In this document: positions 9,209-62,489 of the stretch, piece after piece
Layout: the number at the start of each line of letters is the position of its first letter
Numbering within the stretch: position 1 is the first letter of the stretch
Source: Patellaria atrata CBS 101060
Taxonomy: Eukaryota
Assembly: GCA_010093705.1 (NCBI GenBank)
Contig: MU006116.1
Location: 37,424-101,423 of the forward strand
Length of the DNA: 64,000 nt
Reading direction: 5' to 3'
Notes under the pieces: generated by a model
What the model saw: the letters and a program-made list of their open reading frames with translations, nothing else
Databases searched by the model: none
What the model was told of the DNA's origin: nothing
Position numbers and translations under genes: made by a program

Positions 9209-10041
9209 ATGAATATGTCGATATGAGGCGACTTTTTACTCTTACCCTTTACTTTCTTGAATCCGACTAATAATCGATTCTGCGATATGCAGTTCGATAC
9301 TCTTGGATCCGACACAATGTAATTAGATCGTATGGATGGATGCTCATGATACCCTTGCGACATGAGCGATTACTACGGGGTTAGGAAGCTTAGGATAATT
9401 GAATGTTAAACATTATATTTAAGTATATCATGTGCTATGTGATTTTGACTTGGTATATTGAGGGTGATTTGTGAACTGTGTCGTTGGAAAAGAGTGTGAT
9501 TAGTCATCTCGCGTGGTTTACGAAAGGGATGGTAGCCTCAAAGGAATGAAGCTTACCTTGACGTCCATGATCGACCTTGACATGGAATGCTCATTCAACT
9601 TCAACAATCAAAAACTTACCTGATTACCGGCATAAAGCAATAAAATGTAGTCAGGAACTTCCTAGAATAAAACATCCTTGTATTGTAGCTCAAAACTTCG
9701 CGCGGTCTGTCGAAGCACATCTCAAACAATAGAGAACAAGACGCAGTTACCGCAGTCCCTTCTACAGACCGTTCATCACAACTAAAAATAGAAATAAACG
9801 AATAAAACCTCCCATATATCCATTCGCTACCGTTCCCCCTTTCTCGATCCGTTTCTTTACAAAACTAATTTTTATCTTACTCTCATCTTCCCTCACTCAC
9901 ATACCCCTCTTCCGCTTTTTCCTTCCCTTGCCTTAGTCATTCCCCTCATCCTTCCGTTTCCCACTCCCCTCCCCTCCATTCTTCCGTTTCCCCTTTTCCG
10001 TCTCTCTTTACCTCATCCTCCACCTCTCCTTGTCCCTCTCC

Positions 10042-12189: not shown

Positions 12190-12792
12190 GTTTGAGCATA
12201 TAAATACATCGGGGATCGAGTGGGGGGTAAGAAATAGATTCGCAGACCATGAGATTGTGACTTTTACGGACAAAGGGTCGAGGTACTATAATGGTTTCTG
12301 GGTATGGATGAGTTTTCCCGCCAGCACTGCCCACGTGGGCCGCATGTGTGAACAACGCACTTGCCATGTGAGAATGAACGCATAGCTTAACAAACACGGG
12401 ATAGCTCACTTATCACATGGATCGGGTTTGAGGTGTATGATATTGTTCAGGAGATTTTTTTGATGCTGAAAGGGTCCGGGAGGAAGTGGAATGAGATATA
12501 AAAAGGGACTAAAATTCGAAAATTGGTTCTGACTTTACAGGAAGAAAATAAAAGATAGTAGGGATGATAATGGTGCAATATTAATTAGTATATTGATGAC
12601 TGTGTATGCCATACTACCCACGTAATAAAGATCAGACCCTATAAGTTTATCAGAATTGGTTCTTCTATCTCTTATTAATGCTGATGACGTGGGGTTGAGT
12701 AAAGATTAACTTCATGGTGACTTCGATTACAGTGTGTCTTTCGACGGGAAACCATCACTCAAAAGTGTTGGGAGACTCAATTTCTAAGTTAA

Positions 12793-13070
12793 TGTCAAGG
12801 CTCAACCTCAGATGGAAGCTGAAAGGTATATTGCTACATGTACATGAAGCTAAAACTTGAGGAAAGAAAGTAAAAGAGAGTGTCAGAACAGCGTGAGCTG
12901 TTCTATCCAAGTACAACATGACTAAGCTACTGGATCATCCATGAAGCTTAAACTTAAGGAAAGAAAGTAAAAGAAAGTGCCAGAACAGCGTGAGCTGTTC
13001 TATTAAGAATAGCATGGCTAAGCCGCTGGAACATCAAGGCACTTATACTTATTGGGTCTAGCCCGTGACA
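12793..13070. mobile_element. Solo LTR (278 bp), copy 1
   Basis: TGTCA...TGACA termini, perfect 5-bp TSD GTTAA (12788-12792 and 13071-13075); near-identical to 19572-19851. Confidence 0.92.
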
Positions 13071-14653
13071 GTTAACGTCTGTATAGGAGTAGAGTGACTG
13101 CAGTTGTGACTGGGGCACATTTTATACATCATCTCAAGTCAGTAATAAGGATTCAATTATTATGAGATTACTTGAATCGGTGAATTCCTACCGCTTGTGA
13201 GATGATGTAAGCTGGAGGAGAGACTTGGGAATTCTGACTGTGGAGTAAAAATGCGGGGATCCCTTCTCACAACTGATGATAGCTATATCTAGATAACCCC
13301 AAATCATGTGAAAGAAATTGAAATGTGTCTAATATTTCGAAATGATTAGAATAATAATTGACATTAATAAAGGTTTAGGATTTTCGGACGTCCATATCAG
13401 TGTCACCATTGCTCCAGCTCCGGGAGTTTCGACTGTGATCGTCATACACAAATCATGAAATGACTTTAGGGTACTTGAGTGATAATTCCTTGAAATGAAC
13501 GTGGCCAGTCCTGATACTGATACATATATGGTAGAGTGAACTGATTGAAACCTTTACCAACAATGTAGTTCCCTTGGTCATTTAACCAGCAGATGAAGTG
13601 CGATTACTACCAGGTATGTAACGAGGGAATATCGAGTTCAGGAACAACTTAGTTGAGTGATGGAAGTGACCCAGTGTAGTCTTTACCCGCTTGCGTAATT
13701 TTATCGCATCTCCGATCACTTCATGATCCATATCTCTTTCCTATGCCCTGGGTTATTATAAGAGACTAATGAGTCACCTACACCACAGAAAGTAAAATGA
13801 TGGACTCTGGTTTTTACAAATTGCACAGCATTAGAATGTTCATACATCCTAGATCTCCTTTATTGTGACGGAAAGGAGATGAACTCAGGCATTTACAATT
13901 AGTCTAGAAACCTAGAAGATGCTGAGTAAGATATACTTTTTCTTGACTTAGTCATCCATCGAACGAACGTCAAGTCATCCAGTCACTTTAGCATACCCTG
14001 AACAGCAACAACACTGAGAAAAATGAAAATAATTTCAACATATTATTTGACTAAGTTCAAGCCTCAGATGCAGGTAGAATTTGTCTTAAATGAACTGTGA
14101 TGCACTTCCGTAAAGATATCACTGCTGAACGGAGTGATGTGGAGAGGAATAGAACCAGGAAAACAACTCAAAAAGATTAAGGATAGTCCTTGAATAGCAA
14201 TAAAATAAGAAGACTAGATTCGGAAGTAAGGGAATTTGGTTCTTGAATTGTAGTATAGGATAGTCGTTTCCACCAGTAATGGGTTCCCCCATAGGAAGTC
14301 TCTCTCCTAACAATGAAGAAACAACTGAATTTAGGATTATATACCAACTATATGAAGTATTAGTTAACATTCTGATAACTTACAATCCCTGAATCTGATG
14401 GGGTGGGGTAATGGGTTTGCTTGCATAACCCCTAGGGCTTGAGGGAATCGCCAAGACCAGCCCTCGCTACTTGCCTTATAATCTGCGGCCTCCCACTCTC
14501 CCCCCCTCGGTTTTCCTTCTCTTCTATCTTTCCCTCAATCACTCAATCTACCTCAACATTAGCCACTTCGAAAACAAGCAACACCCCTTTGTACTGTTAC
14601 ATCACAGAAGGGTCTCACTTACATAAGCATCTTGCCAACCAGTGGTACCCGAA

Positions 14654-15244: not shown

Positions 15245-15468
15245 ACTTGGCCGGGATAGATAACACCTTCAATCGTTGTATACAAAGATTAGAAGATGTT
15301 CTCTTTTTGTTCGATTTGTTGAAGGGAAGGTGTTTCCAATTCAGGATGTTGCTATTCGGTGATTTTTAATTGAGGGTGGATACGTAGAGAATGCTCATTT
15401 GATCAGCTCTAAGGTTGAACGGATCGAAAACCGTCGGCGTGTCGATATTAGATAATGGTGTTGCATAA

Positions 15469-16059
15469 CTAGTCTTTTGCGCTATCAACAATGAAGTATT
15501 TACCTGATTTTCGATCTGCACTGCCAATAACATTCCAATATTCCGCCTCTTGTGTAGCATTCGTAACAACTCGCTTCTTTCGTTCCCGTCCAGGAAGGGC
15601 TGAAACCTTGTCCTCTTCGGTGATTGTATTTTGAAGAGACGAAAGGACAATTTCAATCTCTTTTTCAGCTTTGACGGTCTCATCTCGAATGCTGCGTAAT
15701 GGTTGAATGTCCTTGGTGTTTACTTGTCGAATCTCCTTGACAAAATGGAGTTGAGACTCCAATGTATTAGCCATCTTAGCTTCTTCATCAGCACTTTGTG
15801 GAAAGGGAAGGGCTGATAACCGTAGCAAATGATGTAGGTGATCGGACGTAATAGCAGGAACATCATTATTCTGTGAGTCTGCAGTAGGTAGTAATAATCG
15901 CACGGACCAAGACGGTTTCGAAAGCAGAGCGTCGATATCCAGGGATGACGAAAAGTTGCTACACCCACGACATGACAACATATGTCTGAGTGATCCATGA
16001 GCTCGCAGAACTCTCGGAAGGTTATTACAGACTCTGGTTTTAGTGACTAAAGCGGCCAT
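15469..16059 (-). CDS. Mitochondrial Glu-tRNA(Gln) amidotransferase small subunit (Gta3/GatF-like)
   Basis: Basic presequence-like N-terminus; DIDALLSKPSWSV, LHHLLRLSALP, LESQLHFV..I..V.T....PLRSIRDE and C-terminal YFIV motifs. Confidence 0.75.
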   Translation of the reverse strand: MAALVTKTRVCNNLPRVLRAHGSLRHMLSCRGCSNFSSSLDIDALLSKPSWSVRLLLPTADSQNNDVPAITSDHLHHLLRLSALPFPQSADEEAKMANTLESQLHFVKEIRQVNTKDIQPLRSIRDETVKAEKEIEIVLSSLQNTITEEDKVSALPGRERKKRVVTNATQEAEYWNVIGSADRKSGKYFIVDSAKD

Positions 16060-16449
16060 ATTGGGGTATTGAGCGGTCAAAGTTGCCCAGCTGTTGTTAC
16101 TTTGGAAGATGGGGAAGATATGAGAAAAATGAGCCAGATGCCGACATTTGACCTTCTTGAATTCCAACGGCAGAGATATTTCAGTAATTCAAGTTTTACT
16201 TACTGTGTTGAGGAGGTTTTGCGGCTCATAGAGCGCGTTTGAGCATAAGATGAGGTTCAAAAGTACGGCAAAACTGCGGATCTTACCGGCAGGTGCGGGT
16301 CATTTAAGTTCCAGCTCATCGCTCATCTGACACTTACCACTTCCATCTGAACTCTTAGCGGACGAGCTCCGTCATAGTTTCTTACTCACATTCTCGAGAC
16401 CTACCCACAAACTCTTCGACTATCTCTAGTTGCGGTATATAGAACTAGA

Positions 16450-18011
16450 ATGTCAAATCGTAAAGGAGAGAAACCAGTGTCACTCCAAGATGCTCAAGCA
16501 AAGCTACGAGAGGTTAGTGTAATTGCTCTAGCTCCCAAGTAATAACCATATCAGCGGGGCTGACGAACCTATGTAGGCGAAAGAGTTACAAAACAGCTCA
16601 AGCGCAAAGAGAGGCTTCAACGTAGGTTTCTCACAGTGAAGATCGAACTTCGTTCACTTATGGCACTTTAGTGGTTGGCCTGGCTTGGTGACCTCGATGC
16701 CAATGAGACAAAGTATGAAAATGTTGTCAAGGCATATAGGGCTGCATCAGATATGTTCAAAGCCATTGAGCATAGTATAACCCCATAATTGAGAATGCTA
16801 CCGAAGAAAATTGTCTGAATCTCTCTATTAGGAAAAGAAGCTGCTCAGGCCTTACAGGACGCCGCAGATGTTCAAATCAAGCATGACGGAGGGTTCGGTG
16901 CCGCTGCGACACTCGAAGATGCATTCAACTTATGTCGAAATACGGATCCGGAAGTGGCTGCGGAGTGTATGGAGAAAAAGGTCCAGTTCTACGAGTCCAT
17001 AATTAAAGAGAATAAGATCGAAGGCAAAAAAGAATACTATAACGCGGCGCATACATGGGAGAAATTAGGGAAAGTAAGAACAGCAAGCCGAAATTCCGCT
17101 CATAACTTTGGCATTATTGATGATTCATTAGGCATACAATTCTCTATATGAAAAATTGGATACAGAAAATCACCAGCTCGCCGTCGAATACCTTGGATTG
17201 GCCGTAAATGCATATGCAGTAAGTTTATTACGTTTAAAGTTCTTCGTAATTACTGATAACTGTAGAATTCCGGTGGCCGGTATGACGATGATGGTAAACC
17301 GGCGTAAGTCGGACATATAGAAGACACAACGTGAACTCGGACAGGACTAATATGGCCAACAGATTAGCGAGGAAGTCTTTTGTGGAGGTAAATACTACCT
17401 CAGAACATTATTCCCGGCCGTTAACATCATTTTAGGCTGGTGAACTTGCCGTCCTACAAAGGGATTATACCATGGCTACGAAGTCCTTCGAAAAGGCGGC
17501 TTGCGCAGCAAAGGAAACTCGGAGTCATAACCTACCGAGCCATGTCTACTCGGCAGTAGTCTGTAAACTTAAGGTATTAGGTGATACAAAGCTTCAAGAG
17601 CAGGAGGTGCAAAAAGAGAAGGTGCCAAAGGAGCCAACTGTTCAAGAGGTGTTCAAAGATATATTAGGTTCGTTATGCTCAATCATCAAACTAGTATGAT
17701 GGTATTAATTCTTTGGACATAGTTGAATATCATGCTCTCTTTCGTGAATTTAAGAATTCAGACAAAGGTCGACTACTGGTACGTTTCTACCGTACTTGAA
17801 AACGAAACGAGATTCTAACAGTTCAGTCCGTCCTCAGTAATAACTTTTCTACCAAAGTATTTCAAGCAGAGCTTGACGCGGTACTATTCTCAAATCAATC
17901 CCAGTAGATATGAACTAGTGTATGCTGACAGATGTATAGGCAAAAGTCACTGAATGGGAGCGCGATGTGTTCATGCTTATCCTTAGTCTCAATGAAGAGG
18001 ACTATACGTGA
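16450..18011 (+). CDS. Divergent alpha-SNAP/Sec17-like TPR protein, about 11 exons
   Basis: Spliced reading KYENVVKAYRAASDMFKA..KEAAQALQDAA..AAATLEDAFNLCRNTDPEVAAECMEK..YTMATKSFEKAA..EYHALFREFKNS..KVTEWERDVFMLILSLNEEDYT* parallels the SNAP helical layout and acidic C-terminal tail. Confidence 0.6.
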
Positions 18012-18764
18012 TTATACTTAGCAAGGGTTTTACGAGGCGCGTTTATATTTATTCTTGCCATTGGTCTGCGCAATATTACACGGAGCTTTAGTGTACCGTC
18101 AATACGAAATTTTCATTGAACTTGATGACATGTCCAAGGGCTCGGTATCACAAGTCATGACTTAGGTTATTTCCAGGCAAAACTGTGTAAATATATCGAC
18201 ATTTAAGACTTGAAAACTATAATTATCCTAATTTCAAGTTGGAATAAGCCTATACCCTTTTCTTAATTTTCTAAATGTCCAATTTTAGTACTTCGAGAAC
18301 AAGAGGACTTATTTTGCGTGCCCAAGAATTTTCAGTGTGGCCAACAATACGTATCGATAAGGTATTAATATTCTCGGGATTTCATCGGTATTGTATCGAA
18401 TATTGTAATACCTTAAAAATACTCTTGGCATTCAAGGCTTTTCAATATTTTTAGAATCTATCTAAAATATTTATACTTTTTGGAAGAATTTCATTGAGAT
18501 AAAGATGCCTTCGTACGAAGCCATTACATAGCTATGAGTAATATGTACAGATGTTCTAATATGGAAGGCACGAGGACGTTCCTGCCTTCCCACCTGCCTA
18601 CCTACCCACCTGCTAGTTTACATAAATATCTCTTCTTTCTGGGCTTTCTCTTCTTCTCTTCTTCTCTTCTTCTCTTTTTTTCTCCTCCTCGACCTCTGAT
18701 TTAGCAACTCGAAGTGTAAGTGCTCAGCTCAAATCTATCGTACGAAGGCTAATCAGACTACAGC

Positions 18765-19301
18765 ATGGCAGATATGCAAGTAGTTCTCTACAACCCAGCG
18801 ATCGCGCTTGCCGCTCAGGCAAACCGCAACCCAGTGCTACTCATAGCACAGCAGCAACTGGCTCCGTGGTACCATAGCCCGCAGAGTAGAGCACTTCTGG
18901 CTGTCGGCGGGGGTGTTGATGTTGAGTTCGTACGGGGCTCCATCACGCCTCAGCAGATTGAATCTCATAGGCAGTCATATGTCAATAGGATCCTCATCCA
19001 GTCTCGTGGAGGTGATATTGATCCTTGTACGGCTTGTCGTACGAGAGGTTTTCGTCCCTTCCTTAGTTGTCGCCGCGCTGGGGTGCACTTTGGTGGAGCA
19101 TGCGCCAACTGTAAATGGTGTGACCATGCAGCGCGCCGTTCCGTACGAGCTGGTGGGCTATATAAGCCTTCTTATGGAGACAGGCTGCTTGGATCTGATC
19201 CAAGGGATGACAGGGCTGACGGTAGCGCCCCTGGGAATGCTATCACGCTGGGAGATGATGACGAAGGGGCTACTCCCCAAAATGTTATAATCATTGTCTG
19301 A
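18765..19301 (+). CDS. Transposon-borne Cys-rich protein, DUF3716-like putative Zn-binding domain
   Basis: Open 178-aa ORF with IQSRG....CTAC.....PF..C......GGACANCKW; upstream CATAAATA (about 18621), CT-rich box and a 5'-UTR intron at 18716-18763 (GTAAGT..GCTAAT..CAG). Confidence 0.75.
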   Translation: MADMQVVLYNPAIALAAQANRNPVLLIAQQQLAPWYHSPQSRALLAVGGGVDVEFVRGSITPQQIESHRQSYVNRILIQSRGGDIDPCTACRTRGFRPFLSCRRAGVHFGGACANCKWCDHAARRSVRAGGLYKPSYGDRLLGSDPRDDRADGSAPGNAITLGDDDEGATPQNVIIIV

Positions 19302-19479
19302 GCAAAGCTTCGTACGAAGTTTTCTTTGGCGTTCTGATGTTCTGGCGTTCTGGAGTTCTGGTGTTCTGCTTTGCATAGCTATACAGGGCTGTTGGTAGCA
19401 CTCAGACGTGATCTATACCTTTACGTGGTGTCTAAGATCAGTAGCCATTAGGCGAAACTAAATAGATCGTACGAACCTT

Positions 19480-21900
19480 TTAGTAAATATCTTGTCTTAC
19501 CCAATGTTTAAGACATTCAGTATGTTCTAGCTCTCTTGAACTTAAGCGTGATCTTTCCCATGATACCGTACTGTCAAGGCTCAACCTCAGATGGAAGCTG
19601 AAAGGTATATTGCTACATATACATGAAGCTTAAACTTAAGGAAAGAAAGTAAAAGAGAGTATCAGAACAGCGTGAGCTATTCTATTAAAGTACAACGTGA
19701 CTAAGCTACTGGATCATGCATGGAGCTTAAACTTAAGGAAAGAATGTAAGAGAAAGTGCCAGAATAGCGTAAGTTGTTCTATTAAAGTATAGCATAGCTA
19801 AGCCGCTGGATCATCCAAGGCACTTATACCTATCGGGTCTAACCCGTGACACGTACGACGAGCTGCTGAAAATACTCGTTCTGGTTCATCACTCATAGCT
19901 GGAATTGAGAGGATCTCAACTGCAAGTATAGATAGCCGTGGAAACCGAGCTCTTTGAGTATCAGTTAACCACCATTTAATAGGTGAAACGTCCTCAATAT
20001 CGTACGGTTCTTGGTTAATATAGTCTTCAAACTCATCACCACTTAAGGGAGTCTTATTAAACCACTCAATTTGATTAAGAACACGTTCAAAATCAGTCAT
20101 ATTCTCAGATAGAGTCCTCTTTTCTTCGTACGACGCTGGTAATAATACTAAACAGGTTTTATTCCAATTTTCCCAGTATAATTTAGCAAGCTTAATCATC
20201 TGCTCAGCTTTCCCTCTTTCTTTCTTCCAACCCTCCTTAATAATCTTCGTACGTGTAACAGGCTAGAGCCTAGTGGTATGAGCGCGCCCTGCATCCGAAG
20301 ATCAGCCAGTAATATTTTCCTCAAACCTGCCTTCAGACTCTTCTCTTCTTCTTTATCTTGATCGTAGATAGCATCTGGACTAGATAGTTGGAACACAATT
20401 ACTAGAGGCCGCTCACAGTACGATAGTAAGGAGTAAAGATTGTCGCAAGAATATAGCAAGGTGAGGAAAGAAGTATAGAATAGTACTTCTCAAAAAGCTG
20501 CAAAGCTTTATAAAGTTGAGGTCTAAAATCTTTCTTATAGGTACGTTCATACTTTCTCAAAAGAATATCAAAGCCAAGCATCGTACGAAGTATCATATCA
20601 AATAATAGAGAATGGCCTTGATTAAGAAGCGTTGTCTCATAAAAGGGGCGAAGAATTAAATGGATCGTACGAAGCTTTTCCCAATCTCTATATGAAAGAC
20701 AATCTTCTTTAAGATCACTATACCATCTCTTAACATATGAATCGATTTCTTCTTCTTTACTTCATGCAACAACTATCATAATATACCAGCTATTCCATCT
20801 CGTACGATTATCAAGTGGAATCATTCTCTCTGCTCTTGTAGTCAAGTCTTTTAAGTGACGTGTAGAGCTTCGAATATGAACCACAATATTATGAAGCTTT
20901 CCAAGTGACCCTACCGTACGAAAGGTTGACTGTCTCTGTTTTCTTAAGTCGGCTTGTCTTATCTCATAGTCCTCTGGTGATAGTTCATGTGTAAGACTAC
21001 TTAGCCCTTGAGATTCGGTTTGTTCTTCAGCGTCGTACAACTCAATCAAGTCTAAATCTATCGTCCCAGCAAAGAGAAAGATTTGTACAATCAAGTTGAT
21101 AATATGGCCTATACATCGGATTCTTTGAGATGAATAGTTCCATACTAGATCTTGACTCTCTTGAAGATATTGACTAAGCAGCTGGCAAAGCTTATCATTC
21201 GTGGAAGCATTATCACCAATAATAGTACCAAGCCTTCGTACGATACTATAGTCTTGAAGAACTGGAAGAAGTACTTCAAGTTATTCACTAGATGAATGGT
21301 TTCCTACTTCTTTAAGACCAAGTAATACTCTTTGAGGTACCTCTTCCGTACGATCAATATAATGCGCGACAATACCAAGGAGAAGTATCCGATTTGGGGA
21401 AGTCCAGATATCAAGTGAGATATGGATATTTATAGGCGTAGATTGAAGTTGCTTTCGTACGAGATCTTTTTGGGGAGAGAAAGAAGCTGTTCTTCTTTTT
21501 GAATTTGTTGAGTGTGAAGTTGGAATAAAGCTCGTTGACTGCGGGTTAAGAGCTAGGCAAAATGCACGAAACTCAGGCCATTCAAATATACGGAAGGGGA
21601 GTCTTCGTATGGTAATTAGTTGAGATATCGCTTTATCAATAATATCTTGATTAAGAATCTTTTGTAACACGAGCTGATCTAGCTCATTCAATTTAGTATG
21701 CTCGCTTAACCGGTAAAGATCTTATAGTCTTTGGAAACTGTCTTCCCTATTTTCGTACGAGGCTCGTCTAGAGATATACTATGTATGTTAAGAAAATTCT
21801 TCTTGAAGTTTGTACTAATTATTGTACTATACGAACACTCGTTTATTATTGAATCTCAGAAGACATTATTTAGGAGTAGAGACCACTTTATCGTATATAC
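19480..21900 (-). pseudogene. hAT transposase, disrupted by stops/frameshifts and an LTR insertion
   Basis: Fragments RRLPF..EWPEF, HISLDIWTSPN, RCIGHIINL (CxxH), DNRTRWNSWY, WW....RFPRLS..A..ILSIPAMSDEPERVFS; removing the LTR restores RRTVSWERSRL..ECLKHW..* ending at 19480. The 5' limit is approximate. Confidence 0.9.
19572..19851. mobile_element. Solo LTR (280 bp), copy 2, nested in the hAT transposase 3' end
   Basis: TGTCA...TGACA termini; 5-bp TSD CGTAC (19567-19571 and 19852-19856). Confidence 0.92.
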
Positions 21901-22175
21901 GAAGAGTAAAATTTTGAATTGTGGGTTTAATAATATTAAGCGAAGTATTATTAGGGTATTATGAAGGTATTTATCGATACAATACTAATCGGTATTCGAC
22001 ACTATTCAATACCGGAATATTATTGGCCACACTGGAATTTTGGTGCAGTACCAAGCCTTGACCCAGTCCACGCCTTATTGCGTCACCACATCGGGTTGAT
22101 TTCACACCCAAGACATGGGAGAATTGTATGACTTCAACATCGCAGCGCAGGGCAGTGTTTTTATAAACACGCATT

Positions 22176-49638: not shown

Positions 49639-52600
49639 TCAGCAATCTCTCTCTGACAGAATCTTCATCGCCGCCACTCTGCGTGCTCCCTTTCCCAGGT
49701 CGTTATATGCCTTCCTCCGTGCCGCTCTTTTCTTATTATTTCGCGTCCACCTCAGAAGAAAGACTACGTTGTATCGAGGTCGCCGTTCGGCTAGAGGATC
49801 AGCACCATGTTCAAGTAGTAGGTCGATTATAGCTTCGCGTTCGTCGGCTCCCGAGTAAGAATATGCTTCCGATATAGGCAAAAGGAACCCACGGATTTGT
49901 GCGTTAACGTCAGCGCCATAGTGTACTAATAGCTGAATAACCTTCAGCTTGCCTTTCCGTTCCACTTTAACATCCCAACTAGAATTACCTCCACAAGCGG
50001 CGATTAGCGCGGTACCGCACTTAGGGCATTGCGCATTCACGTCAGCACCCTTTTTAATCAGTAACTCAACAGTCTCATCAAACAGGCCCATTGCGGCTGC
50101 TTGTAGAGCGGTAGAAAAGCGACCAAATCGCGAGGGTGGAACTCGTGCATCAACGAAAGCCCCCTTATCGAGTAACAGATCGATAATCCTGCCGTAGGGT
50201 CGTTTATCACCGTATTTTAAGCGAGCAGCCGATGCTGCCAGTAGGGCAGTCCCGAAGCTCTTTCCCGACCCGTTGACATCGGCACCGTTCTCGAGTAGTA
50301 GCTCGACTGTGGTATCGAAGCCTTCCGATGCTGCAGCGATTAGAGCACTGCCGAAGCGCCCACCCTTCATATTGACCTCAGCCCCGTTGTCAAGTAACAC
50401 CTTAACAATTTCATGGGAGCCTCCAAAAGATGCCGCCTGTAGCGGGTAGCCGAGGCGCCCGCCTCGTAGGTTAACGTCAGCCTTATATACGAGCAGTAGT
50501 TCCACGCGCTCTAATGCTCTTTTGATCTCCGATTCACAGTACTGCTTCTGCTCCTCCTCCTCCTCGAGGCGCCTATACCACGCGCTTTTCTCGGCTTCTG
50601 AGAGCGGTTCCCGAAGTAGTTCTGTCTCTTCCAGGTCACGCATCCTATTCTTAATAAGCATAAGCTCGTGGCTGTCCATATGAGGATATTCTGCCGCATT
50701 ATGAAGTGATGTAGGGCCAGGTGGGAACCACAAGTTTTTCCATTGCGCGTTGACATCCACACCCTTCTCTAAGAGTAATTTGAACGCCGGTGTTCCAGTT
50801 TGGGCTGCGTGAACCAAACAGGTACCACCGTTCGCAGTTATGTCCGCGCCGTTGGCGAGTAGTAGCTCTGTAATCTCCTCATCCGCTGCTGCCCCCAAGG
50901 CGCCGTGGTATCTCCCACTGCCCGCGTTTACATCGGCACCTTCCCTGAGGAGGAGCTCGATAATTCCCTTGTGGCCTCGATGTGATGCCGCTTGTAACGC
51001 GTTGCCGTAAAAACCGCCTTTCGCGTGAATATTGGCGCCTTTCTTAACGAGTAGCTCGACTGCTTCAGCCTTGCCCGTAAATGATGCTGCTTGTAACGCG
51101 TTACCGTATTTACCACCTTCAGCGCTGATATTCGCACCTTTTTCGAGCAGTAGCTCGATCACCTTGACGTGACCTTCATATGATGCCGCCTGTAGCGCGT
51201 TACCGTATTCACCAACCTCAGCATTTACATCCGCACCCTTTTCGAGCAGTAGCTCGACTATGTCGACATGACCTGCATATGATGCCTCCTGTAGCGCGTT
51301 AGTGCCTCCATATTTCCTTCTGTTTGAGATTGCTTTGACGTCAACTCCCTTCTCTAGCAGTTTCTTGACGATTCCATATCGGCCCCTTTGCGCTGCCGCA
51401 TGAAGCGCGTCAACATTGCCCGTATTGTCCTCTGCTACAGCGGCCGTCTCGATCAAAATATTAACTATCTCCTCGTCGCTCTCATCAACTGCCAAGCGGA
51501 ACGCGCTTTTGTACTCCTCGTTCGAGGGTCTGTAGGGTGTAGGATCGTCTGGATGGGATGGAGGAATATTTGAATAAGATGAAAGTTCATCTGAATTGTT
51601 AGGCGGAGAGTGGTTTGACTTTCTGTGTACTGTTGAGCGGCGCTTCGTAACCTTACGGCTTTGTTTACTTCCTTCCGCATTCAGATCCGAGTCATTTGTC
51701 AAGGCTTTAACGAGGTGTATTCGACCTTCACCTGTCATAGAGTATAACAACCATTTATCGTTTTCTGAGCGATACTTCCTAAATCTGGGATATTCTCTAC
51801 CTGTTTCCTTGGACTCTTCGTCGAGCTTTGAACGATAATCGACACACTTTTCCAGTTTTCCCTTATTTTCAACCCCAAATTCCCGGAGAAAATCATTCTG
51901 TGAGATTCCATCGCGTTGCGCGTCATCGGCATGGTGAAACATACGGTGAACCGCATAGGATAAGAGGGGAAACTCTTCATTAAGCTTACGTAGCTGACTT
52001 GGTTTCTTTCCATTGTAAGAGGAACGTCTGTTTTCCAATTTTAAAAAGTACCGGAAACAACCATTCTTAAGTTGATCGTGACTTAGACCAGATAAAGAGG
52101 AGCTAAGGTTAGGGTTCAGGATCACCAGCCCATCCTTTAGCAGAAAGTCTCTCGCAGTCTCATGGATGAATTGTACTGCATTAGACGACCAGGTTTTCGA
52201 AATTTCGATAAGACCTTTCGAGCATCTGAGAATATACCGTTCGATAACTTTCTCGTTAGGAATCGTGAAGTCAAATTCGTCTTGGGATTGTGATCCAGTC
52301 TTGATTGCTGAATAGAGTTGAGCTGGACTGAGCGGCTCTTTCGCAAATAATACCCATTGCAGTAATAAAATGGTTCTCTCTAAATCAACCGTATCCCTGA
52401 GTAGCAGCTCCTTGAAGACGTCATTCAGTTCCCCTGGAAGCTCACTTAGCCGTTGACTCATCGCATCCACTTCGCCTTGGTCGTGTAGTTCGTTTAAGAT
52501 CTGAACGGCTAAAATAACCCAAAGAAAAACACCAGAGGCTCTGTGGCATATATCATGTCGTAAGTTTTCCATTTCCGGACGTTCACCTCCGTTAAGTCGA

Positions 52601-54618
52601 TCATGTACGAAAGTGGCAATATCATCACTATGACCCTGATGATGATCCAATGTCAATGAAACTCCCTTTTTGATGGTAATGTTTGGGTAATGACGGCTCG
52701 AAAGACAGACATGAAATAATGAGTTGCTGCTAATAGCAACGTGTCCTAGCTCTTCAAGGAACCAAACCATCGGACGAACATCAGCCTCCTCACCCTCGTC
52801 TAGAGCGTCGATGAAGATAGAAAGGGGTTGGGCCCCCAGGGATCTTATTACGTCAGTAAGGAACACCTGAAGTTCGGGAATCGTCCATTCGTCGACCTCC
52901 CATTTGGCATTTGCAGGATCCCCCTTGCTAGAAGAGAGTAGTTTTGCCTTAGTGGAGAATTCTTCAACGAAAGAGTCTTGAAATTGTGGGAGCGCTCTAA
53001 GGAGTTGATGGACCAGTGAGCGATACATGCCATGGGTGGATCTTTCGAGTGGATTAGCTGCTCTCGCGTTGAAACAGTATGTGATGACTCCGGATCGGTG
53101 CTGCTGCCGTACACGATTATAGACTGTTTTCCACATAGTTGACTTGCCGGATCCTGGTTTACCCTTGATCCAGAGAAAGCCATGATGGTCTTTTATTTTG
53201 CTTGTATCCCGCCAGTCCTTGAACTCGGCTTGCTCAAAAACCCATTGGCATGTCTCCTTGTGAGGTGCACGAATCGTTCTAAGGCGAGCATCTTCACGTG
53301 GAAAAGAAAGTGATTTCAATAATACAGAATATATAGATCGTCCATCGCTCATGTTTGTTGGGGCTGCTTGATCGATTGTATCACCGGTAGAGGTTGGTAG
53401 TGGCATATACACTATCTTCAAGTCTGTTGATGGTCTGCGTCGGATGGTATTATCGCCTGGTTATGATGACGAGAAGTATCAGCATTTTCTGGCCAATCAA
53501 TCTATATAATTTCTACATACATTGCATCTCCAACGACTGCATAAGCTGTCTCGCTATCGTACTAATGACTAGTTCACAATCTCGATCCTGATACGAACTG
53601 AATTTGCAAATTGTACTATGATCTGCCGCTATAGGTACCTGCGTCTCAATGTTTCCAGGCAGATTAAGCGTCGCGGAGCTTTTGTCGACAATCTAAAATC
53701 TATTAGCTTCTCGCCATTTACTGCAACGTATATTCGAGTATACTGCCTTACCCGCTTTACCTGCCTGCCGAACAGTTTGGTTGTATTTTCCTCATAGAAA
53801 CTTATCATCAAGAGCTTGTTTCCAGCCATATGTCGAGACATCTCATGCAAGTTCGTGGCCCCTTGCGATTCACGTTTTAGTAACGTAATGAGGTCGTTCT
53901 TTGGACCGTTTGAAGCTGTCCGAAAGAGAGCAACTACAAATTCCCCTACGGTGGCATAATTTCCCCCTCGATGAGGTGTGGAGAAGAAGACTAGGAGACG
54001 GGTAGATTCGGCAATGTACTTATAATCAACGTTCAATTTTGCCTCAATTAAAGCCTAGAGAGTAATGGTGTGAGCAGAGAGATGATCTCCGGTAGACATG
54101 CTTTCTACGTACCTGCTTCACTACCAGGCCACCCATGCTGTGACATATAAATACGATCGGTCGTGTTGGCTTTTCCTGATGCAGAGCAAGTGTTAGAATA
54201 AGAGACACAGCCAGTATTATCCTCTTCCGCGACCCCTATCTCTTCTATGAACTGAAAACATACGGCTCGTTTTATTGTTAGCGAGATTAAAAGTTTCTCG
54301 GCATAGTCTTTCAGATTTACAGCCCCTGCCCCTACCGCAGGGCTGGCATTGTATCCGAACAACATGACGCGAGCAGGATTCGGTAGGCGAGAAGGTAATA
54401 GATCTTTAAGCCAGAGACATCCGTTTTCTTTAGATGTCCAGGTAGCGGAAGCGTGGTTTGGTTTGTCACCGATATTCAGTCCATGAACCGCTACGATACT
54501 AATGATAAGATTAGTCTCTACATCTATAGTGCAAGATTAGGTAGTTATACTCAATCTCTGGTGGGCCTGAAGGCTCGCTGGTCTGCTCGCTACTGTCGAA
54601 GATGATATCCAGTCCCAT
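49639..54618 (-). CDS. Fungal NLR-like STAND protein: N-terminal alpha/beta-hydrolase (SesB/DUF676-like), NACHT, ankyrin repeats
   Basis: Exons splice in frame: DIVAVHGL, WLKDLLP, RVMLFGY, RPIVFICHSMGGLVVKQAL, FFSTPHRG, DHSTICKF; then LWIKGKPGSGKST, IFIDALDE, SSRHYP, ASGVFLWV; C-terminal GNALQAAS..GH..IVELLLEKGADVNA repeats. Confidence 0.9.
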
Positions 54619-60817: not shown

Positions 60818-62489
60818 AAGTCGCTGGGTAACGCTACAAAGGCGCATAATGTCGAAATGAGTATTCGAATGTGAAGTAGGGTATGGGGCTAGAAATAGAT
60901 ACAATATTCGTGATCGAGACGCCGTGGAAGCAAAATTAATTTCGAGAACGTTTCGGTATGGGACGAGATGAGGTTCATGGTCTGAGGCTCCGTTAATGTT
61001 TTGATGTTTTAGCGTACGAGGTAACTGATTGGCTGAGCTTAACTCTAACCGCTGTGCCGCAGCCACCGGCATCATGTCGCGCGTCTTCCAGGCCGATCAT
61101 TTGAATTCACCACTTAGAGCTCAATTCGAGAAATAAACTAAATGCAACGACGCACAAAGGAGATGTATACACTTTAACATGATAATCAATATGTGCACTT
61201 TTGAATGTAGGATATATAGTTCTAGAGTATAATGATACCGTGCGTACGATGATAGAATGAGGGGGGAGGGAATAATGGGAACTGGGAAGTTGCCAAAAAG
61301 ATGACGGGCAGTCACGGGCTGGCATAAATGGCACCTTCCATCCCAAAACCTGGTTGAACCCCTGTCAAAACGCCACGCACCAGCCCCTCCTCGTGGCTAC
61401 ATATGGACCCTCTCATCTCATCGCGCCCGTCTTTCTTTTTTCTTTTTGACAGACTGTACTGGCGTCTCTCTCTGCTTTTATCGTCGCTTCAAGGCACGTA
61501 GGGCGTCCGTCCCCTTGCGACCGACTAATATATACGACAGGACGGTGAAGGACCTAACCTTGCGCTCTACTCCCGATAGTTGTACTGTACTATCGTGTGT
61601 TGTGTCGCCTGACCGCGCCTTCATCGTCCTGTCGTCGGTGGTCGTAAGCGGTAGGAAAAAGAGCTGGACAAAGCAGGTATCGAATCTAATAAAGGCATGT
61701 ACGCGTTAACCAACGATGTATATTGATGCAAATTCGACCTGAGTCTGGCATTACTCATACCATCCCCAGCTTGAACATCTGGCAAGCAAATGACTGGTCG
61801 CTAAGAGTTCTCCAGCTTCTGAGGGCGGCTACTTAGGCCGCACGACCACAAGAGCCTCACATGTTCCAAAATAAGAAGAAATGCTTTGACTGGATGACGA
61901 TAGAAACGCTACAGTGGGGCGACCTCTCGTTTCAGGCAATTCAGAGAGGTCGCATGATAGGTCCTGAGCGTTTTACTCCGTACGTGCATCTCTTTTCCCT
62001 CCTCACATATCTGGATATATTCCCTTTGCTGTACCCTTTGGAACACTTCATTAAGCTACGACACTACCTTTTTTTTTGTTTGCTGTTTTNNNNNNNNNNN
62101 NNNNNNNNNNNNNNNNNNNNNNNNNNNNNNNNNNNNNNNNNNNNNNNNNNNNNNNNNNNNNNNNNNNNNNNNNNNNNNNNNNNNNNNNNAAGTCACGAGT
62201 TTCCTTTGTTCATGCAGGAACTCTTTCCCATTGTTCTTATTCTAACAATTATAATGCTTCTTTGAGCGACTCCTTTGTTCCTCTCACCTTTCTCTTCTCT
62301 CGGCCTGGTTTGCCGTTCTAATACACCCTCAACCCCCCGCCATCTTTCTCCCATACTCTCTATTTTTCTTTTCACCATTCCTCCATATAAATCCTGCCTA
62401 TATTTGCATAGCACTAAACGCTCCTTCTGCATTTCTACAAAGACTAAGGCTTGCTTTAGCTGCGAGCGTAGATACCATCATCCGTCAAC

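Follow-up and report, generated by a model that had tools for sequence, protein, structure and literature searches.

Arrays of the palindrome CGTACG accompany DUF3716 genes on unrelated fungal mobile elements and point to a transposon-borne DNA-recognition system

Some transposons encode an accessory protein and accumulate its short cognate motif in their own sequence. In the Arabidopsis VANDAL elements, which are Mutator-like, the accessory protein is VANC, and relief from silencing has been proposed as the outcome (accessible text of PMC10398659). Here, we analyzed a 64,000-nucleotide (nt) stretch of Patellaria atrata CBS 101060, contig MU006116.1 (the window), in which a hAT-type DNA transposon at positions 18333 to 22034 carries a gene for a DUF3716 protein and many copies of the palindrome CGTACG. 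An earlier reading of the sequence alone (the original prediction) had likened this locus to VANDAL and suggested that the DUF3716-like protein binds the palindrome along the element. The two agree in that the element encodes an accessory protein and has accumulated a short motif in its own DNA, but the likeness is incomplete. The protein is a six-Cys DUF3716 protein of a fungal host, and Pfam searches at E values up to 10, as distinct from a direct alignment with the VANC sequence, gave no VANC match. In contrast to VANDAL, the motif also coats coding sequence every ~140 to 150 bp, and one motif is common to five unrelated element classes instead of diversifying family by family. An outcome for methylation or expression is proposed here by analogy.

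Short motifs repeated inside a hAT element are also known from Ac, Tag1, and Hermes. Their subterminal repeats are bound by the transposase and are confined to the terminal few hundred bp, whereas CGTACG fills the interior of the P. atrata element and occurs on non-hAT elements, and the ends of the element have GGTATT/AATACC repeats. The identical 8-bp palindrome, TCGTACGA, has been described with a copy-number-dependent positive effect in cyp51 promoters of the Dothideomycetes Pseudocercospora fijiensis and Cercospora beticola (PMC6637983, PMC8252799, bioRxiv 10.1101/2020.11.12.379818). There, it is present in one to six copies in a single host promoter, and the available parts of these papers draw no link to a transposon or to DUF3716. 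DUF3716 genes on a transposon of a Dothideomycete have been reported as well: REP9 of Zymoseptoria tritici, which is of the IS3EU type, has two of them (PMC8232023). REP9 belongs to another transposase superfamily, the accessible part of that report mentions no motif array, and our comparison is one of descriptions only. Among fungal DNA transposons with a TET/JBP dioxygenase gene, heterogeneous lineages share an accessory gene thought to counter silencing; it encodes an enzyme acting on 5-methylcytosine, has no known cognate site array, and is restricted to DNA transposons (PMC12730594). Finally, sequence-specific binding of double-stranded DNA by a DUF3716 protein has been shown. Recombinant NCU05718 of Neurospora crassa, which has no recognized DNA-binding domain, binds double-stranded TTAGGG repeats directly (accessible text of PMC4650311), and it is described as the DUF3716-bearing orthologue of Fusarium PSC58 (accessible text of PMC10776026). 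NCU05718 is, however, a host gene with another target sequence, and it was set beside the window subfamily by description only. A literature search on DUF3716, on CGTACG or TCGTACGA with transposons, and on fungal transposon-encoded anti-silencing (supplements outside its scope) found no description of such arrays among the papers listed. The coat and the gene on five kinds of element point to a previously undescribed transposon-borne DNA-recognition system.

The element contains 19 exact CGTACG sites (18512, 18739, 18929, 19038, 19142, 19311, 19468, 19852, 20001, 20127, 20248, 20582, 20666, 20801, 20915, 21237, 21347, 21456, and 21754), all of which had been listed in the original prediction. 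The array extends from 18512 to 21759, and at 12 of the 19 sites the motif is TCGTACGA. The four one-off variants that had been noted are also real (AGTACG at 20417, GGTACG at 20540, CGTACA at 21034, and CGTATG at 21606); the last three are decayed sites of the array, and the first arose by target-site duplication at a nested insertion. Outside the element, CGTACG is rare, as had been estimated by eye, but the count there is eight and not about seven (8 in 60.3 kb versus 19 in 3.7 kb). The window has 27 copies in total, whereas 100 rounds of dinucleotide shuffling gave 7.2 ± 2.6 (maximum 14); the element has 19, whereas 2000 such shuffles of the element alone gave a mean of 0.34 (maximum 3). 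The observed/expected ratio (o/e) of CpG is 0.89 in the element and 0.93 in the rest of the window, showing that there is no general CpG enrichment. The site consensus is palindromic (c-t-T-CGTACG-A-a-g), and its outer bases extend the symmetry to cTTCGTACGAAg. A logo over 376 sites was symmetric, with T (66%) or C (22%) at position -1 and A (61%) or G (22%) at +1; two arrays (L026 and L017) favor C/G flanks. Far from the element, three CGTACG copies lie within 1 kb of the window (61013, 61243, and 61979, in 61013 to 61984), and tblastn detected no similarity to element proteins there.

Relatives were collected by scanning metagenome contigs with a DUF3716 alignment. Peptide patterns matched 252 stretches, 136 of which encode a relative, and the best 80 of these 136 were fetched with flanks. 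A locus was called intact if some 2-kb window contained at least five CGTACG copies. It was called decayed if CGTACG was absent or nearly so and the four products of a transition at both CpGs of TCGTACGA occurred at least six times. By these definitions, arrays co-occurred with the DUF3716 relatives in 31 intact and 34 CpG-decayed loci of the best 80, and 15 loci had neither. The densest array comprises 46 CGTACG copies in 6.4 kb (L021). The 15 loci with neither include five hAT copies riddled with stops (L014, L031, L043, L045, and L049) and five short or weaker members of the decayed group; the other five are L016, L041, L044, L054, and L068.

The original prediction had treated the array as a feature of the hAT. 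It is indeed present on hAT elements, but this description is too narrow, as DUF3716-linked arrays were found on at least five kinds of mobile element. The carrier class was assigned by Pfam for 17 long open reading frames (ORFs) and by tblastn with those ORFs for the remaining loci. hAT carriers (PF05699) are the window element and L002 to L004, L008, L010, L015, L018, L042, and L064. Ty1/copia carriers are L021 and L022, with a 1684-amino-acid (aa) open ORF containing RVT_2, gag_pre-integrase, and rve. Ty3/gypsy carriers are L026, with a 1176-aa ORF containing RVT_1, RNase H, and integrase, and the decayed group. NDC10_II (Crypton-like) carriers are L027 and L036, and carriers with DEAD/Helicase_C and OrsD are L017, L020, L023 (1463-aa ORF), and L037. 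In most carriers, the main ORF is followed on its 3' side by the DUF3716 gene, which has the opposite orientation.

The arrays keep to the elements. All 25 array sites of L027 lie between the arms of a perfect inverted repeat of 19 nt (at 9533 and 13379), and only one further CGTACG lies outside; the corresponding numbers inside and outside are 17 and 2 in L002 and 10 and 1 in L012. Contig L002 also provides a related hAT without the gene. Its second, distant hAT (15397 to 16920, 32 to 49% identical) has unrelated codons at all eight alignable site positions and no motif, and the contig contains a single DUF3716 match; this second hAT is without DUF3716. A maximum likelihood tree was calculated from 36 DUF3716 sequences (45 of 81 were left out as near-duplicates or copies with several stops). 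It pairs L015 (hAT) with L037 (helicase) at a support of 96/80, and L021 (copia) joins them at 94/93; the hAT state needs at least six changes on well-supported branches. Because the tree mixes element classes, the DUF3716 gene must have moved between them. Thus, the array is linked to DUF3716 across element classes, independently of the transposase. The three refuting checks of the original prediction that were run all turned out in its favor: the codon-preserving shuffle described below, the co-occurrence with DUF3716 relatives, and the motif-free hAT that lacks the gene.

Some loci of the collection differ from this pattern. L016 has six tCGGACGAa/tTCGTCCGa sites and three CGTACG copies at 100 to 1800, and its DUF3716 is on a long branch; this array is possibly a specificity variant and a candidate for protein-site co-variation. 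In L046 (2881 to 4279), the DUF3716 gene and the array lie in a large inverted duplication (arms of ~530 nt, 93 to 94% complementary) that adjoins a host NOPCHAP1 gene, and no transposase was seen. Short GC-rich repeats (e.g., CCTGGCCG and CAGGACGG, 8 to 28 copies) lie beside the DUF3716 gene in L005, L006, L007, and L013. A sequence similar to the terminal repeat of the window hAT, GGCCAATA, is enriched in L031, L054, and L068 (5 to 9 copies).

Selection on the motif acts at the DNA level. In the window element, the sites use all three codon phases, and others are noncoding, upstream of or between the genes (18512, 19311, and 19468); as had been claimed, the array is neither a tandem nor an amino acid repeat. 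Enrichment persisted in the codon-preserving shuffle that had been proposed as a check, in which synonymous codons were permuted within each ORF, 500 times each. This test is conservative, as motif codons are already part of the ORFs' own codon usage, and, the ORF pieces of the window being short, it is decisive only on long intact ORFs of relatives. None of the 500 shuffles reached the observed count in four such ORFs, in which the sites again use all three phases: copia (L021; 37 sites versus a shuffle mean of 5.9 and a maximum of 13), gypsy (L026; 28 versus 3.9 and 10), helicase (L023; 28 versus 5.0 and 11), and hAT (L015; 12 versus 1.1 and 5). Moreover, the motif is present at orthologous codons (L015 aa 216, 460, and 545) in all eight undecayed hATs, which are 38 to 55% identical, and at six further transposase positions of L015 the matching codons contain it in five to six of the eight. 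Decayed hAT copies read TGTATA or TATATA at those orthologous positions.

Spacing was analyzed for 359 intervals from 18 loci, a nonredundant choice from the window and the 31 array loci that includes both of the close relatives L002 and L010. The median was 139 bp, the mode 120 to 160 bp, and the coefficient of variation 0.60. Spacings under 40 bp occurred 22 times, compared with 83 expected from a random process of equal mean. Compared with 500 random placements of sites inside these arrays (17 loci, without L010), distances between pairs of sites were depleted below 90 bp (z -7.6, -4.4, and -2.6), and maxima at 120 to 180, 270 to 300, and 420 to 450 bp were weak (z 1.0 to 1.8). The sites show short-range mutual exclusion and lie about one nucleosome-length apart (median near 140 bp), a claim that stops short of nucleosome phasing. 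Very probably, the array consists of sites that were selected for protein binding to double-stranded DNA.

The accessory gene of the window element (18765 to 19301, forward strand) contains an open ORF (18765 to 19298) for a 178-aa protein. The protein matches Pfam PF12511 (DUF3716) at residues 76 to 124 (E 1.2e-9; 38.4 bits versus a cut-off of 22). Three CGTACG sites lie within this ORF (18929, 19038, and 19142), and a putative intron of the 5' untranslated region (18717 to 18763, forward strand; GTAAGT...CTAAT...CAG), read from the sequence only, contains site 18739. A word-indexed search returned 16 relatives, including P. atrata paralogues and a Usnea florida protein, and a search with the subfamily profile returned 976 clusters at 50% identity with E values up to 1e-3 and 361 with E values up to 1e-10. 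Members of the subfamily have ~110 conserved residues followed by an acidic low-complexity tail, and six conserved Cys residues in the pattern C-x2-C-x10-C-x10-C-x2-C-x8-C. An AlphaFold model from 102 sequences had a predicted local distance difference test score (pLDDT) above 94 over residues 20 to 125 of the paralogue P0002; a model from 14 sequences was poor (pLDDT 44). An ESM Atlas search for a DUF3716 relative gave a score of 0.81, which is chance level. Membership in the Zn2Cys6 class was not supported: only the six-Cys spacing is similar, Zn_clus did not match at E values up to 10, and no fold match was significant.

The window protein has five of the six Cys residues. The sixth (Cys125, equivalent to Cys122 of P0002) is replaced by Arg, changing RCSVR to RRSVR; it is present in at least 90% of the 14- and 102-sequence alignments, and P0002 has all six. 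In addition, Arg119 is changed to Cys (CGT-type to TGT; 19116 to 19141). Either the two residues were swapped, or a dead copy was hit twice independently. The lost Cys weighs against function of the window's own DUF3716 copy. With its broken transposase, the lost zinc-ligand Cys, and two nested insertions, the window element is a dead member of its family.

Many related arrays have been erased by CpG mutation. The contigs of the decayed group have a common accession prefix and encode, ~2.4 kb from the DUF3716 gene, a gypsy-like polymerase that has 26 to 31% identity to the one in L026. CpG o/e was 0.00 to 0.27 in these elements. Five long loci were profiled; the flanks of four had values of 0.7 to 1.0, whereas L058 showed no flank contrast, with 0.07 to 0.25 in all 2-kb windows. 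Decayed loci contain TTGTATGA, TCATACAA, TTGTACAA, and TCATATGA in similar numbers, often 4 to 10 each. Because these four 8-mers match independent CG-to-TG or CG-to-CA changes at the two CpGs of TCGTACGA, the decayed array is a remnant of the CGTACG array. On the same grounds, we rejected the idea that the low-identity loci have another motif, as the enriched 8-mers are precisely these double transition products. Decay was also seen in a hAT pair. L014 is 88% identical to L010; C-to-T or G-to-A changes, in CpA/TpG and CpG contexts, make up 289 of the 407 differences, and 17 of 20 CGTACG sites are destroyed. Seven decayed gypsy-like loci (L032, L034, L039, L060, L066, L070, and L076) have two or three DUF3716 matches each, which may be tandem or nested copies.

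The explanation that we favor, with a probability of about 0.5, is that the CGTACG sites are a selected binding-site array read by the element-encoded DUF3716 protein, gene and array together forming a portable module. DUF3716 would be the best candidate reader because the array occurs strictly together with it on five unrelated kinds of carrier and does not depend on the transposase; judged from these sequence associations, we lean slightly toward this assignment. In the proposed mechanism, cTTCGTACGAAg, a two-fold symmetric site with two CpGs, would be bound by the small zinc-type protein, presumably as a dimer. The gene has moved among hAT, copia, gypsy, NDC10-type, and helicase elements, and each carrier would have evolved and kept about one site per 140 to 150 bp over its full length, coding sequence included. 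The bound protein could then act on chromatin or transcription of the whole element, keeping it open or active, both in cis and in trans on all coated elements. That the pair keeps element chromatin active is suggested by the analogy with VANC and by the activating effect of the motif at cyp51.

Were DUF3716 the reader of the array, it would be the first sequence-specific factor with cognate sites that a fungal transposon encodes. To our knowledge, the two would also be the first factor-motif pair in any organism that is common to DNA transposons and retrotransposons and written through coding sequences, and such a role would provide a function for a widespread domain of unknown function (the 976 clusters). 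The array offers a testable handle on how fungal elements deal with silencing, and it ties them to a palindrome linked with azole-fungicide resistance at the cyp51 promoters of two crop pathogens.

Several observations weigh against reading of the array by DUF3716. No structural search linked the protein to known DNA-binding folds. The top Foldseek matches in the PDB were HAP1 Zn2Cys6/DNA complexes, which were not significant (E 2.9 to 8, probability at most 0.15). VIA-align found no match with Z of at least 2 among 48,161 chains, and a PDB sequence search found no relative of DUF3716. Pfam at E values up to 10 returned, for six proteins, DUF3716 only, plus a subthreshold Agouti match in one (PF05039, E 0.0087, 16.6 bits versus 27). 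The association itself was established in one direction, as all loci were found via DUF3716. There are few controls that lack the gene, namely a distant hAT in L002, another in L014, and the long terminal repeats (LTRs) of the window. On short contigs, the element ends are out of sight and placement of the gene within the element is presumed, although sites of the array are spread over the polymerase, helicase, or transposase ORFs themselves. Nor does the gene protect its carrier: the 34 loci that carry it and are yet fully CpG-decayed show that it does not prevent decay, and in L014 relative to L010 motif CpGs were lost at 23 of 40 positions versus 58 of 140 other CpGs (Fisher p 0.10), with no sign that motif sites are shielded from mutation of the kind caused by repeat-induced point mutation (RIP). 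The protection from RIP or methylation that had been part of the original prediction was not upheld by these data. Furthermore, the motif is unchanged over DUF3716 proteins that are only 35 to 60% identical, which fits a conserved host reader too. In P. fijiensis, concatenation of a 19-bp promoter element with TCGTACGA raises cyp51 expression at least three-fold, as seen in a promoter swap (accessible text of PMC6637983). In C. beticola, a resistance-associated single-nucleotide polymorphism 124 bp upstream of CYP51 changes CCGTACGA to TCGTACGA (accessible text of bioRxiv 10.1101/2020.11.12.379818). No transposon takes part in either case.

The promoter data suggest a second explanation, in which a conserved host transcription factor, such as a sterol- or azole-responsive cyp51 regulator, reads TCGTACGA. 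Elements would collect its sites for transcription or to attract chromatin remodelers, and DUF3716 would be a cofactor, competitor, mimic, or unrelated. In the available sections of the cyp51 papers, the palindrome TCGTACGA was singled out and its copy number tracks resistance to demethylation inhibitors (PMC8252799), and a stronger UPC2-type site was predicted for the C. beticola variant (bioRxiv 10.1101/2020.11.12.379818). A sterol regulator is known from Fusarium: homodimeric FgSR binds a 16-bp element in which the repeat CGAA occurs twice, and it recruits SWI/SNF (accessible text of PMC6420630), and the array consensus TTCGTACGAA contains an inverted CGAA. The invariance of the motif while the DUF3716 proteins diverge agrees with such a reader. 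However, a promoter needs few sites, not 20 to 46 spread regularly through coding sequence, and the motif is missing from other elements of the same contigs, namely the LTR copies of the window and the second hAT on L002. A host reader also leaves unexplained why the same small gene is present on five unrelated array-bearing element classes, and the cyp51 evidence comes from two species, neither of which is a source of the coated elements examined here. We consider a host reader the main rival and a serious one, less likely than reading by DUF3716. Some factor in Dothideomycetes reads TCGTACGA as an activating element, be it a host factor or a DUF3716 protein.

A wider reading is tentative and as a whole rather doubtful. 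DUF3716 would be a new zinc DNA-binding fold and a common-good chromatin module of every major ascomycete element class. It would read a palindrome that serves as a positive, possibly sterol-responsive, cyp51 element. One site per nucleosome-length would keep the elements open or tie their activity to a host stress pathway, and occupied sites would become hot spots for LTR insertion. The two CpGs would make the system erasable by methylation or RIP-like mutation, and dead copies with TTGTACAA and TCATACAA ghosts would exist for this reason.

The nested insertions bear on a further alternative. A 280-bp solo LTR with TG...CA ends (19572 to 19851) landed in a CCGTACGA site and is flanked by the 5-bp duplication CGTAC (19567 to 19571 and 19852 to 19856); as had been noted, it contains no CGTACG. 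A 164-bp insertion with TG...CA ends (20254 to 20417) landed in a TCGTACGA site and is flanked by GTACG (20249 to 20253 and 20418 to 20422). The position of the inserts in motif sites explains the variants at 19567 (CGTACT) and 20417 and two large gaps in the array; when the inserts are subtracted, the spacings are 99 and 165 bp. In contigs from three public runs, 19566 is directly followed by 19852 and 20248 by 20418, so other copies of the element lack both inserts. Run X3 has loose contig ends at 20254 and 20417, and the k-mer depth of both insert families is very high in X1 and X2. The solo LTR has a second copy in the window at 12793 to 13070 (12788 to 13075 with the duplication), which is 91.5% identical and flanked by the 5-bp duplication GTTAA within the palindrome GTTAAC. 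A 97-bp tandem duplication (19619 to 19812, 81% identical) is present in the LTR and in this second copy.

Both unrelated inserts thus lie exactly in motif sites, for which we estimate a chance of ~1.4% per insertion (~46 registers in ~3.4 kb). CGTACG, or a protein on it, could direct LTR integration, with DUF3716 as a targeting factor that steers insertions into coated elements as safe havens; copia and gypsy carriers of DUF3716 do exist. Yet there are two events only, the LTR copy in GTTAAC suggests that the LTR integrase may prefer TA-centered palindromes, and the hAT itself is not inserted in a motif (duplication GAATTTT). As insertions into the carrier's own ORFs are costly, targeting looks more like a by-product than a selected function. 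As the purpose of the array it is improbable; as a side effect or an alternative it is possible. The regular spacing of ~140 to 150 bp and the exact hits by nested insertions suggest a measurable interplay with nucleosomes and integration.

The motif covers the transcribed regions of both genes and, being palindromic, is alike in sense and antisense transcripts. It could therefore act in RNA and, through binding or pairing, serve the export or packaging of transcripts or their evasion of RNA silencing. We regard this as distinctly improbable, as some sites are placed upstream of the genes or in between, the motif acts in DNA as a promoter element, its decay by CpG transition tracks DNA processes, and it is common to DNA transposons and retroelements.

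hAT transposases bind short repeated motifs, and the array could in principle consist of transposase sites spread inward from the ends. This is contradicted by the data and very improbable. The same array is present on copia, gypsy, NDC10-type, and helicase elements, and the related hAT without DUF3716 lacks the motif. The first and last CGTACG are 180 and 280 bp from the ends of the window element. These terminal regions instead hold seven of the element's eight GGTATT/AATACC copies, on the left in 18361 to 18412 (copies at 18361, 18387, and 18407) and on the right in 21955 to 22013 (copies at 21955, 21966, 21991, and 22008), and these repeats are likely the transposase-binding sites. Chance, base composition, amino acid repeats, or a tandem repeat can be dismissed despite the recurrent dipeptides Arg-Thr and Val-Arg encoded at some sites, given the dinucleotide and synonymous-codon shuffles, the three phases, the noncoding sites, and the 31 independent loci.

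The identification of the element as a hAT with an accessory DUF3716 gene was borne out by its terminal inverted repeats (TIRs) and by the PF05699 and PF12511 matches. The 17-bp TIRs CAGTGTGGCCAAYAATA at both ends are short and of the CAG/TAG-start type expected for hAT; the left one, CAGTGTGGCCAACAATA (18333 to 18349, forward strand), matches the reverse complement of the right one (22018 to 22034, reverse strand) at 16 of 17 positions. Target-site duplications of hAT elements are usually 8 bp. The likely duplication here, GAATTTT (18326 to 18332 and 22035 to 22041), has 7 bp directly against both element ends, and the eighth base is mismatched in register.

The transposase gene (19798 to 21721, reverse strand) is a pseudogene with in-frame stops at 21281 to 21283 and 20762 to 20764, and it is split by the insertion at 20254 to 20417. 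Its hAT dimerization domain (PF05699, E 1.2e-12) lies at 19801 to 20262 on the reverse strand, and the transposase pieces are 43% identical to the intact 706-aa hAT ORF of L015 (tblastn). Pfam found no BED zinc finger match in the window pieces; the relative in L002 scores 20.7 bits versus a cut-off of 20.6. In the public runs X1 and X2, which behave as DNA runs, k-mer depth was 322 and 478 in the flanks and in the thousands (~10-fold or more) in the element, and other genomic copies have G at 21283, which removes the stop there. Because of this depth and this base, we regard the family as multi-copy and the window element as a decayed member.

The genes flanking the element are ordinary host genes (DUF726, Mus7, Tsr1, and others), and the product of the Tsr1 gene has 100% identity to the annotated protein of P. 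atrata CBS 101060, which is a Dothideomycete. Positions 1 to 2000 of the window form a block of 14% G+C that adjoins DNA of 48 to 54% G+C and resembles RIP-type AT-rich DNA. A 1273-aa NLR-like gene with an NPHP3_N/AAA NTPase and ankyrin repeats, an architecture typical of fungal non-self recognition, is located at 49642 to 53460 on the reverse strand.

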